The notes under the pieces: generated by a model
Database searches by the model: none
Told to the model about the DNA's origin: nothing
The model's input: the letters and a program-made list of their open reading frames with translations, nothing else
Shown here: positions 37,899-39,955 of the stretch, piece after piece
Layout: each line of letters starts with the position of its first letter
Numbering within the stretch: the stretch's first letter is position 1
NCBI RefSeq assembly: GCF_057098645.1
Contig: NZ_CM169472.1
Direction: 5' to 3' (one strand)
DNA length: 64,000 bases
Program-made: the position numbers and the translations under genes

Positions 37899-39955
37899 CT
37901 AAATAGTTTTCAGAATATTAACGGGAACATTTTCCGTTAGTTCCCCATACGAAAGTACTTCGAGGTCTCGATAACTAGATTCAATAAGTTTTTTGATAAA
38001 ACGACGAATATCCACAGATCCCAGTAAAATAATGTCTTTAATAGGAATATTGATTCCAGAAAGTGCCAGTTTAAAATTATCCAGAATCATCTCAGCTTCG
38101 GATGCATCGAGATTAAGAAAAGTACCGCCAGCGGTAGGCCTGACACCATCTCTGATTCTGTCCTCTATTTCAGGCGAAATCACAATTGCTTTAATTTCTC
38201 CAGAATATGAAAACTTATGGCAAATGTAGCGACCTAATGCACCTCGTACATGCTCGACGAGTGTGATTATATCTTTCTCTCGTGGGCTCCATAATGCTAA
38301 GGCCTCCATAACTAACCGCATATTGCGCACTGAAATTCGCTCCTGGATCAGACGCTGAATTACCTCTGAAATGCGCTGCACGGTTATATATCTTAATATT
38401 TCTTTTAATAGATCAGGATACTTCATCTCTAATTGATCAAGAATATATTTTGTTTCTTGTATACCAAAGTACTCATTAATATTATGAGCCAGACAGATAA
38501 ATGATTATACATTTCATCCATGGCCGTGCGAGTATAACAGCCAATTTTTGTTAATTTTTGAGCATCACTTTTCGTAACCCAATAATATTGTTCACCATTA
38601 CTATTTACAATGACAGGTTTCTTGATCAAAGTCGAAACCACTTCATCTGAATATTCAACCAACAAGACAAGATCATGATAAATTTTAAATTGCGAAGCTC
38701 TGACTTCATTTAGCATTAATATGACATCTTCATCATTAAGACCTTCCCCCTCACGAATGACAATACCGGGAATGCGGATACCATACTCAATAAAAAACTG
38801 ACTACGAATCCTATCAGCAAGATTGATTTCAGTGTATTTTTTAGCCTGTACACTATTCATAATCAAGACCAAGGGTACCGTTTCGGTAATAACCTGATCA
38901 AGTTTATTAATGATACCTAATGAGATATCATCATCTTGATTATAGGGTTCCAACCCAACGGTAATATCTCCCTCAACAACCGTTTCTTCAGTCCCTTTCT
39001 TTTTGAATTTAAAGTAAAAGTAAATTCCTAAGATCACTGCCAAACATAAAAACACAAGAAGGGGAAAACCTGGAAGTAACCCAATACTTAGCGCGAGGAC
39101 ACATGTCACAATAATGACAAAAGAATTACTTAATAACTGGGACATTATATTTTGCCCCATATTATCACTATCGCCATTTACGCGCGTTACGATAAATCCT
39201 GCGCTAATAGCAATTAATAAAGCTGGAATTTGAGAAACAAGACCATCACCGACGGTAAGAATTGTGTAGACGGTCAGCGCTGTTGAGAAATCCATTCCAT
39301 TTTGGCCTACTCCTACTGATAGCCCACCGATAATATTAACAAATATAATAATAATGTTTGCAATAGCATCGCCTTTGATAAATTTCATCGCACCATCAAA
39401 GGAACCATACAGCTGACTCTCTCGTTCTAATACGCTACGACGTTCTTTTGCTAAATCTGCATCAATGATCCCAGCGCGTAGATCGGCATCAATGCTCATT
39501 TGTTTACCTGGCATACCGTCAAGCGAAAAGCGGGCAGCAACTTCAGCCACACGTTCCGAACCTTTAGTAATCACGATAAACTGAACAATAGTAACAATGG
39601 AGAAAATAACAAAACCAACTACCAGGCTATCTCCAATAACGAACTCACCAAAACTCGTTATAATTTCTCCAGCATCCGCCTCAAGAAGTATAAGTCGACT
39701 GGTACTGATCGCCAGCGCCAAACGAAATAACGTTGTGATAAGGAGGATTGATGGAAATGAAGAAAAGCTTAAGATCCTATCAACATAGAATGATCCTAAA
39801 AATACAAGTATTGCCAATGTTAAGTTAAGCCCAATCAAAAAGTCTATTAAGTAGGTGGGCAATGGAATTATGAGCATGGCGATAATCATCACCATTAATC
39901 CAAGAATTATTAATTCTGGATGACTCCTTAACCCTACCAAAACTTTGTTAAACAT
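37899..39955 (-). pseudogene. eivA: T3SS export-apparatus protein EivA (InvA/FlhA family), split by a frameshift into 508-aa and 175-aa ORFs
   Basis: Track ORFs 38429..39955 and 37899..38426 lie in different frames 2 nt apart; together about 683 aa, the size of InvA. Confidence 0.8.

Follow-up and report, generated by a model that had tools for sequence, protein, structure and literature searches.

The 64,000-nucleotide window analysed here (contig NZ_CM169472.1 of RefSeq assembly GCF_057098645.1) contains a remnant of ETT2, the second and already degraded type III secretion gene cluster of E. coli. In this remnant, the gene eivA, for an export gate of the SctV/InvA/FlhA family, sits between eivE (sctW) and eivC (sctN) and is present as two open reading frames (ORFs) of 508 and 175 aa instead of one (Table 1). 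Compared to the NCBIfam equivalog model NF011865 (EscV/YscV/HrcV, 686 positions), the 508-aa fragment covers positions 1-491 and scores 805.7 bits (cut-off 800), and the 175-aa fragment covers positions 513-686 with 284 bits. PF00771 (FHIPEP) is recorded on both called genes. An earlier note on this DNA had assigned the two ORFs to eivA, an InvA/FlhA-family export gate, and the family matches of both halves as well as the ETT2 neighbours agree with that assignment.

The TAG that ends the 508-aa ORF is at 38431-38429 and the ATG of the 175-aa ORF, in another frame, is at 38426-38424, with only the two bases 38428 and 38427 between them; these ORF boundaries are as the earlier note had described. 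The downstream frame is open 5' of its ATG for exactly 26 codons (SFICLAHNINEYFGIQETKYILDQLE), a number previously given as approximate, and is bounded by a TAA at 38507-38505. Because this TAA closes the downstream frame, the frame change must fall in 38432-38504, which lies within the interval of about 38431-38510 predicted before. Native residues 489-511, a total of 23 residues, are absent from the translations of both ORFs. They include the strongly conserved NINEYFGIQETKYILDQLE segment, which is highly conserved in the alignment to InvA (2x49). The calculated Shine-Dalgarno pairing is weak at the 175-aa ORF (-1.7 kcal/mol) compared to that at the native eivA start (-5.7 kcal/mol).

The lesion was mapped by aligning the window to O145:H28 strains RM12761 and RM9872 and to O157:H7 PA20. 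Intact single-ORF orthologues of 2061 bp (686 aa) are found in RM12761 (WP_000482513.1) and in PA20, and eivA is listed at 2061 bp in strain Sakai (PMC3977695). In the intact alleles, codons 486-491 read TTA TCT GTC TGT CTG GCT (L S V C L A). The window has (TCTG)2 in place of (TCTG)3 at codons 487-490 of the 2061-bp gene, the alignment gap being at nt 1459-1470. This 4-bp gap is the sole difference between the window eivA and that of RM12761, without any single-nucleotide polymorphism (SNP). A loss of 4 bp is a net change of -1 in frame, such that the native frame is left after Val488 and a stop is reached 20 codons on. The pairwise alignment to an intact eivA, suggested in the earlier note as a check, has therefore located the lesion at 38490-38497. 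The frameshift is inside the interval that had been predicted, while the single-base indel proposed to cause it is rejected, since the alignment with intact orthologues shows the deletion of a 4-bp repeat unit. It should be mentioned that a natural stop followed by a separate gene in intact homologues would speak against a split of eivA; the intact homologues have no stop there. The (TCTG)2 tract was too short to be reported by Tandem Repeats Finder, and the repeat is visible only by alignment. One tandem TCTG unit has thus been lost from eivA, as is classically seen after slipped-strand mispairing. With the frame lost at this point, the 3' part of the gene (residues 512-686) is left only as a separate, mechanical ORF. 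We consider it very likely that the feature is the ETT2 eivA gene inactivated by a slipped-strand deletion.

To the reconstructed EivA chain, full-length alignments were obtained with the SctV/FlhA structures YscV (7alw, E-value 7e-171) and SsaV (7awa), and further alignments with the C-terminal domain of InvA (2x49, 5e-124) and with MxiA (4a5p). As in Salmonella InvA and the SctV/FlhA proteins represented by these four structures, homology extends over the whole reconstructed chain and the cytoplasmic subdomains SD1-SD4 are conserved. In SsaV these comprise residues 350-418 and 464-479 (SD1), 419-463 (SD2), 480-569 (SD3) and 570-672 (SD4), and the nonameric ring is held by SD3-SD3 and SD3-SD1 contacts, some of them via residues at the very start of SD3 (PMC8223533). 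Based on the alignment offsets, EivA residue 489 corresponds to about SsaV 470-476, in the last SD1 segment just before SD3, and residue 512 maps inside SD3; both positions are approximate, since the deposited chain may be numbered with an offset. The 508-aa ORF contains the membrane domain, the linker and approximately SD1 and SD2, as judged from the alignment to InvA and SsaV. The N-terminal fragment would thus be without the ring-forming SD3, and the C-terminal fragment would be without the start of SD3. Because the conserved segment 489-511 is in neither ORF, we infer that no functional export gate could form from the split eivA. InvA, SctV and FlhA are single-chain subunits of ~685 aa that form nonamers. 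In contrast, the chain in the window is cut between SD1 and SD3, with 23 native residues lost. A functional SctV would be one uninterrupted chain of ~680-700 aa with a membrane domain and SD1-SD4, in a cluster with sctR, sctS, sctT, sctU and basal-body genes; here the chain comes in pieces of 508 and 175 aa, and its only neighbours of the secretion system are sctW (eivE), sctC (eivG), the invF-like eivF and the sctN (eivC) disrupted by IS2. The window eivA, being split in two and having residues 489-511 in neither ORF, is a pseudogene of the SctV family, not a functional member. Two attributes of a frameshift pseudogene are present, namely intact orthologues against which the lesion can be mapped and a lesion that is reproducible in independent sequence data.

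The last point bears on whether the true gene is intact and the 4-bp deletion a sequencing or assembly artefact. The complete genomes might suggest so. A match to eivA is present in 1307 of the 5426 complete RefSeq E. coli genomes and extends over 80% or more of the gene in 978; the best matches are in O145:H28 strains. The deletion is found in none of the 979 that carry the 121-bp region around the tract, where the best identity is 96.8%, i.e. 121/125 columns with the 4-bp gap alone, and eivA is intact in RM12761, the complete genome nearest to the window. However, an exact-protein look-up in draft and SRA assemblies (NCBI, ENA and Logan), through which alone the allele came to light, recovered the truncated 508-aa protein without any change from at least 24 contigs in 32 collection blocks, and these contigs belong to separate assemblies and SRA runs. 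The carriers include GCA_032490095.1, GCA_015676195.1, SRR15369529, SRR32390182, SRR32390198 and DRR634178. All six contigs that were examined base by base align to the window at 99.98-100% identity with no gap and with the same 4 bp gone, and all six terminate at, or extend into, the IS2 adjoining eivA. Typical read errors of the homopolymer type also look different from the removal of an entire tetranucleotide unit. An assembly error, against which the earlier note had cautioned, is contradicted by the identical lesion in independent assemblies and runs, and we give the artefact hardly any credence. Because separate assemblies and SRA runs share it, the deletion is real, inherited and fixed in a lineage that stands very close to O145:H28. 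The tract could also be taken to turn eivA reversibly on and off, by phase variation or by programmed frameshifting, considering that contingency loci work through such changes in the unit number of tetranucleotide repeats. However, the tract has only three units, or two in the case of the window, and no complete genome among the 979 matched the two-unit sequence better than the alignment with the 4-bp gap. In a sample of 30 full-length eivA matches, spread down the whole ranking of complete genomes, all span 2061 bp save one with an unrelated 10-bp deletion; two units are present in 6/6 examined contigs of the deletion lineage. A phase-variable contingency locus was accordingly rejected on the short tract, with three units in other genomes and two in the deletion lineage only. 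A programmed ribosomal frameshift was rejected as well: no -1 slippery heptamer of the form X XXY YYZ lies in the 76-nt overlap zone of both open frames, and the intact orthologues are in one frame and need no recoding. A reversible switch at this site is, in our judgement, exceedingly improbable.

Some observations call for caution on a complete loss of function, which is deduced from where the break falls with respect to SD3. With the TAG-AG-ATG spacing, termination-reinitiation would be conceivable and would give two polypeptides. Phenotypes are described for degenerate ETT2 and for an eivA deletion in a K1 strain, in the parts of two papers that review them (PMC3977695, PMC11068852), so an ETT2 remnant is not automatically inert. 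In addition, the frameshifted and the intact eivA alleles differ by 0 SNPs, leaving no divergence from which relaxed selection could be read. The split gene might then be made as two polypeptides, with the pair or the free 512-686 fragment keeping some activity, such as chaperone or gatekeeper binding, or cross-talk that involves LEE or the flagellar system. The small distance between stop and ATG and the phenotypes of degenerate clusters, as they appear in that part of PMC3977695, would favor this, as would the identical 175-aa ORF on at least 1000 contigs, where it is annotated as a FHIPEP family protein. The number of these contigs is explained by a common ETT2 deletion that preserves just this part of eivA. 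Against expression in two pieces, neither ORF has residues 489-511, which include the conserved FGIQETKY at the start of the ring-contact SD3 (PMC8223533). Also deleted are its partners, namely sctRSTU, sctD, sctJ and the genes for the needle and the sorting platform; the 175-aa ORF has the weak Shine-Dalgarno pairing given above, and the equivalent K-12-type fragment is flagged as an incomplete pseudogene by the NCBI pipeline. Retained activity of two pieces is very unlikely on balance. Equally doubtful is a free SD3/SD4 fragment (512-686), produced by reinitiation, that might moonlight on type III secretion chaperones or gatekeepers and so modulate LEE or flagellar export. An inactivated eivA pseudogene remains the preferred reading.

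The surroundings of eivA show the same state of decay (Table 1). Outside two IS2 copies, the window is ~99.96% identical to O145:H28 RM12761 over 64 kb and differs from it by 22 SNPs, one duplication of 18 bp, one intergenic indel of 2 bp and the eivA deletion of 4 bp. The position is the one known for ETT2, beside glyU (PMC3977695). Similarity to the O157 ETT2 stops at the eivI stub, annotated in O145 as 'type III secretion protein, missing C-terminus'. The large deletion at this edge takes yqeI through eivJ, which are present in O157:H7. Gone in comparison with O157:H7 are the epa genes (sctRSTU, sctQ), the epr genes (needle, inner ring), the org genes and regulator genes. A secretion machine is not buildable from the remaining genes, whether eivA is intact or not. 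In the lineage with this allele, most structural genes of ETT2 were already gone, and eivC had received an IS2. The breakpoints of IS2 copy 1 were determined by alignment, and its two ORFs match the NCBIfam models of IS2 TnpA and TnpB. The two IS2 copies are 100% identical and in inverted orientation, and neither insertion is present in RM12761. They bracket a 7.1-kb segment with eivA, eivE, eivG, eivF and a GhoT/OrtT-like gene; being inverted, the pair could allow this segment to invert by homologous recombination.

Table 1. Features of the eivA locus and of the surrounding ETT2 remnant, in window coordinates
Feature	Position	Strand	Description
eivA pseudogene	37899..39955	minus	ETT2 export gate of the SctV/InvA/FlhA family; 2057 bp vs 2061 bp intact
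N-terminal eivA ORF, 508 aa	38429..39955	minus	native residues 1-488 plus 20 out-of-frame residues WLIILMSTLVYKKQNIFLIN, then TAG
C-terminal eivA ORF, 175 aa	37899..38426	minus	native residues 512-686 (most of SD3, and SD4)
Zone with both frames open	38432..38504	minus	downstream frame encodes conserved NINEYFGIQETKYILDQLE, native residues 493-511
(TCTG)2 tract, site of 4-bp deletion	38490..38497	minus	by alignment to intact orthologues, which have (TCTG)3
yqeH	34360-34992	plus	joined to the eivI stub by a large deletion common to O145:H28
eivI stub, 180 bp	35070..35249	minus	edge of the large ETT2 deletion; yqeH directly after
eivC (SctN ATPase) remainder	35239..36450	minus	without about the first 27 codons; positions 28-430 of 431, NF006012
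IS2 copy 1, 1331 bp	36451..37781	plus	in the 5' end of eivC (sctN); target-site duplication GAAAC
eivE (SctW/InvE gatekeeper)	39948..41117	minus	apparently intact; NF011866, 606.6 bits
eivG (SctC secretin)	41098..42801	minus	apparently intact; TIGR02516
eivF (InvF-like AraC regulator)	42798..43547	minus	NF011868, E-value 1.7e-54, below curated cut-off; orthologue annotation
IS2 copy 2	44891..46221	minus	splits a GH15 (pkgA) gene; target-site duplication CAAAC
glyU, tRNA-Gly(CCC)	47319-47392		

Widespread deletions, mutations and frameshifts, or "mutational attrition", are described for ETT2 in the passages on this cluster in PMC11068852, PMC3977695 and PMC7058095, citing Ren et al. 2004 (J Bacteriol 186:3547). 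As far as that work is represented in these citing passages, the window agrees with it in the glyU-adjoining locus, in the gene set eivF-G-E-A-C, and in the types of damage, namely frameshifts, inserted IS elements and large deletions, after which the secretion system no longer functions. The loss of a TCTG unit at eivA codons 487-490 does not appear in the portions of the ETT2 literature examined, in which Ren et al. 2004 is represented through the papers citing it. At least four independent eivA lesions are seen in other E. coli. Most O145 genomes have lost one C from a CCC run at eivA nt 422, as in RM9872, where the gene is annotated 'frameshifted'. The RM9872-type O145:H28 allele has the same background (~99.9% identity), the same gene and the same pseudogene outcome as the window; it differs in being an independent 1-bp event, and RM9872 is without the IS2 in eivC. 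In RM9872, sctC (eivG) is interrupted as well, by an internal stop, while RM12761 and RM13516 keep both eivA and sctC intact. Because O145:H28 strains differ in their eivA and sctC lesions, ETT2 decay has been independent even within one clone.

Strain NZRM4165 has lost 10 bp at eivA nt 1396-1405, between direct repeats of CAAAAATT, and in strain 2824 an element of the IS3 family has inserted near nt 1720. In 329 complete E. coli genomes, of which WCHEC020032 is an example, a multi-kilobase deletion has kept only eivA nt 1510-2061, fused to a 5' eivF stub. We take this to be the deletion of ~5 kb known as 'ETT2sepsis' (Ideses et al. 2005). Its end point is ~40 bp downstream of the TCTG tract, and the part kept is equivalent to 37899-38450 of the window. 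The common eivF-eivA deletion leaves the same 175-aa ORF as the only readable piece of 3' eivA. Unlike the 4-bp loss in the window, it spans multiple kilobases and takes out eivG and eivE together with three-quarters of eivA, from the 5' side. The window allele is an ordinary frameshift pseudogene, one more event in the already known decay of ETT2, and the frameshift was probably a selectively neutral step in that decay.

For annotation, the two ORFs belong together as one eivA pseudogene and not as two FHIPEP proteins. Taken with the IS2 insertion in eivC, the allele cleanly marks a clade that is very closely related to O145:H28. As a further independent inactivation it extends the ETT2 decay record, which is consistent with a secretion function that is not under selection in this lineage. 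Beyond annotation and lineage marking, the importance of the finding is small.

Two further differences from RM12761 lie outside the ETT2 remnant. In rppH (15255-15803, minus strand), an 18-bp in-frame tandem duplication at 15264-15281 repeats the C-terminal SAYRRK, giving a product of 182 aa in the window compared to 176 aa in RM12761. A 2-bp (AT) indel is located at 31062, in an AT-rich run of the yqeF-kduI intergenic region.
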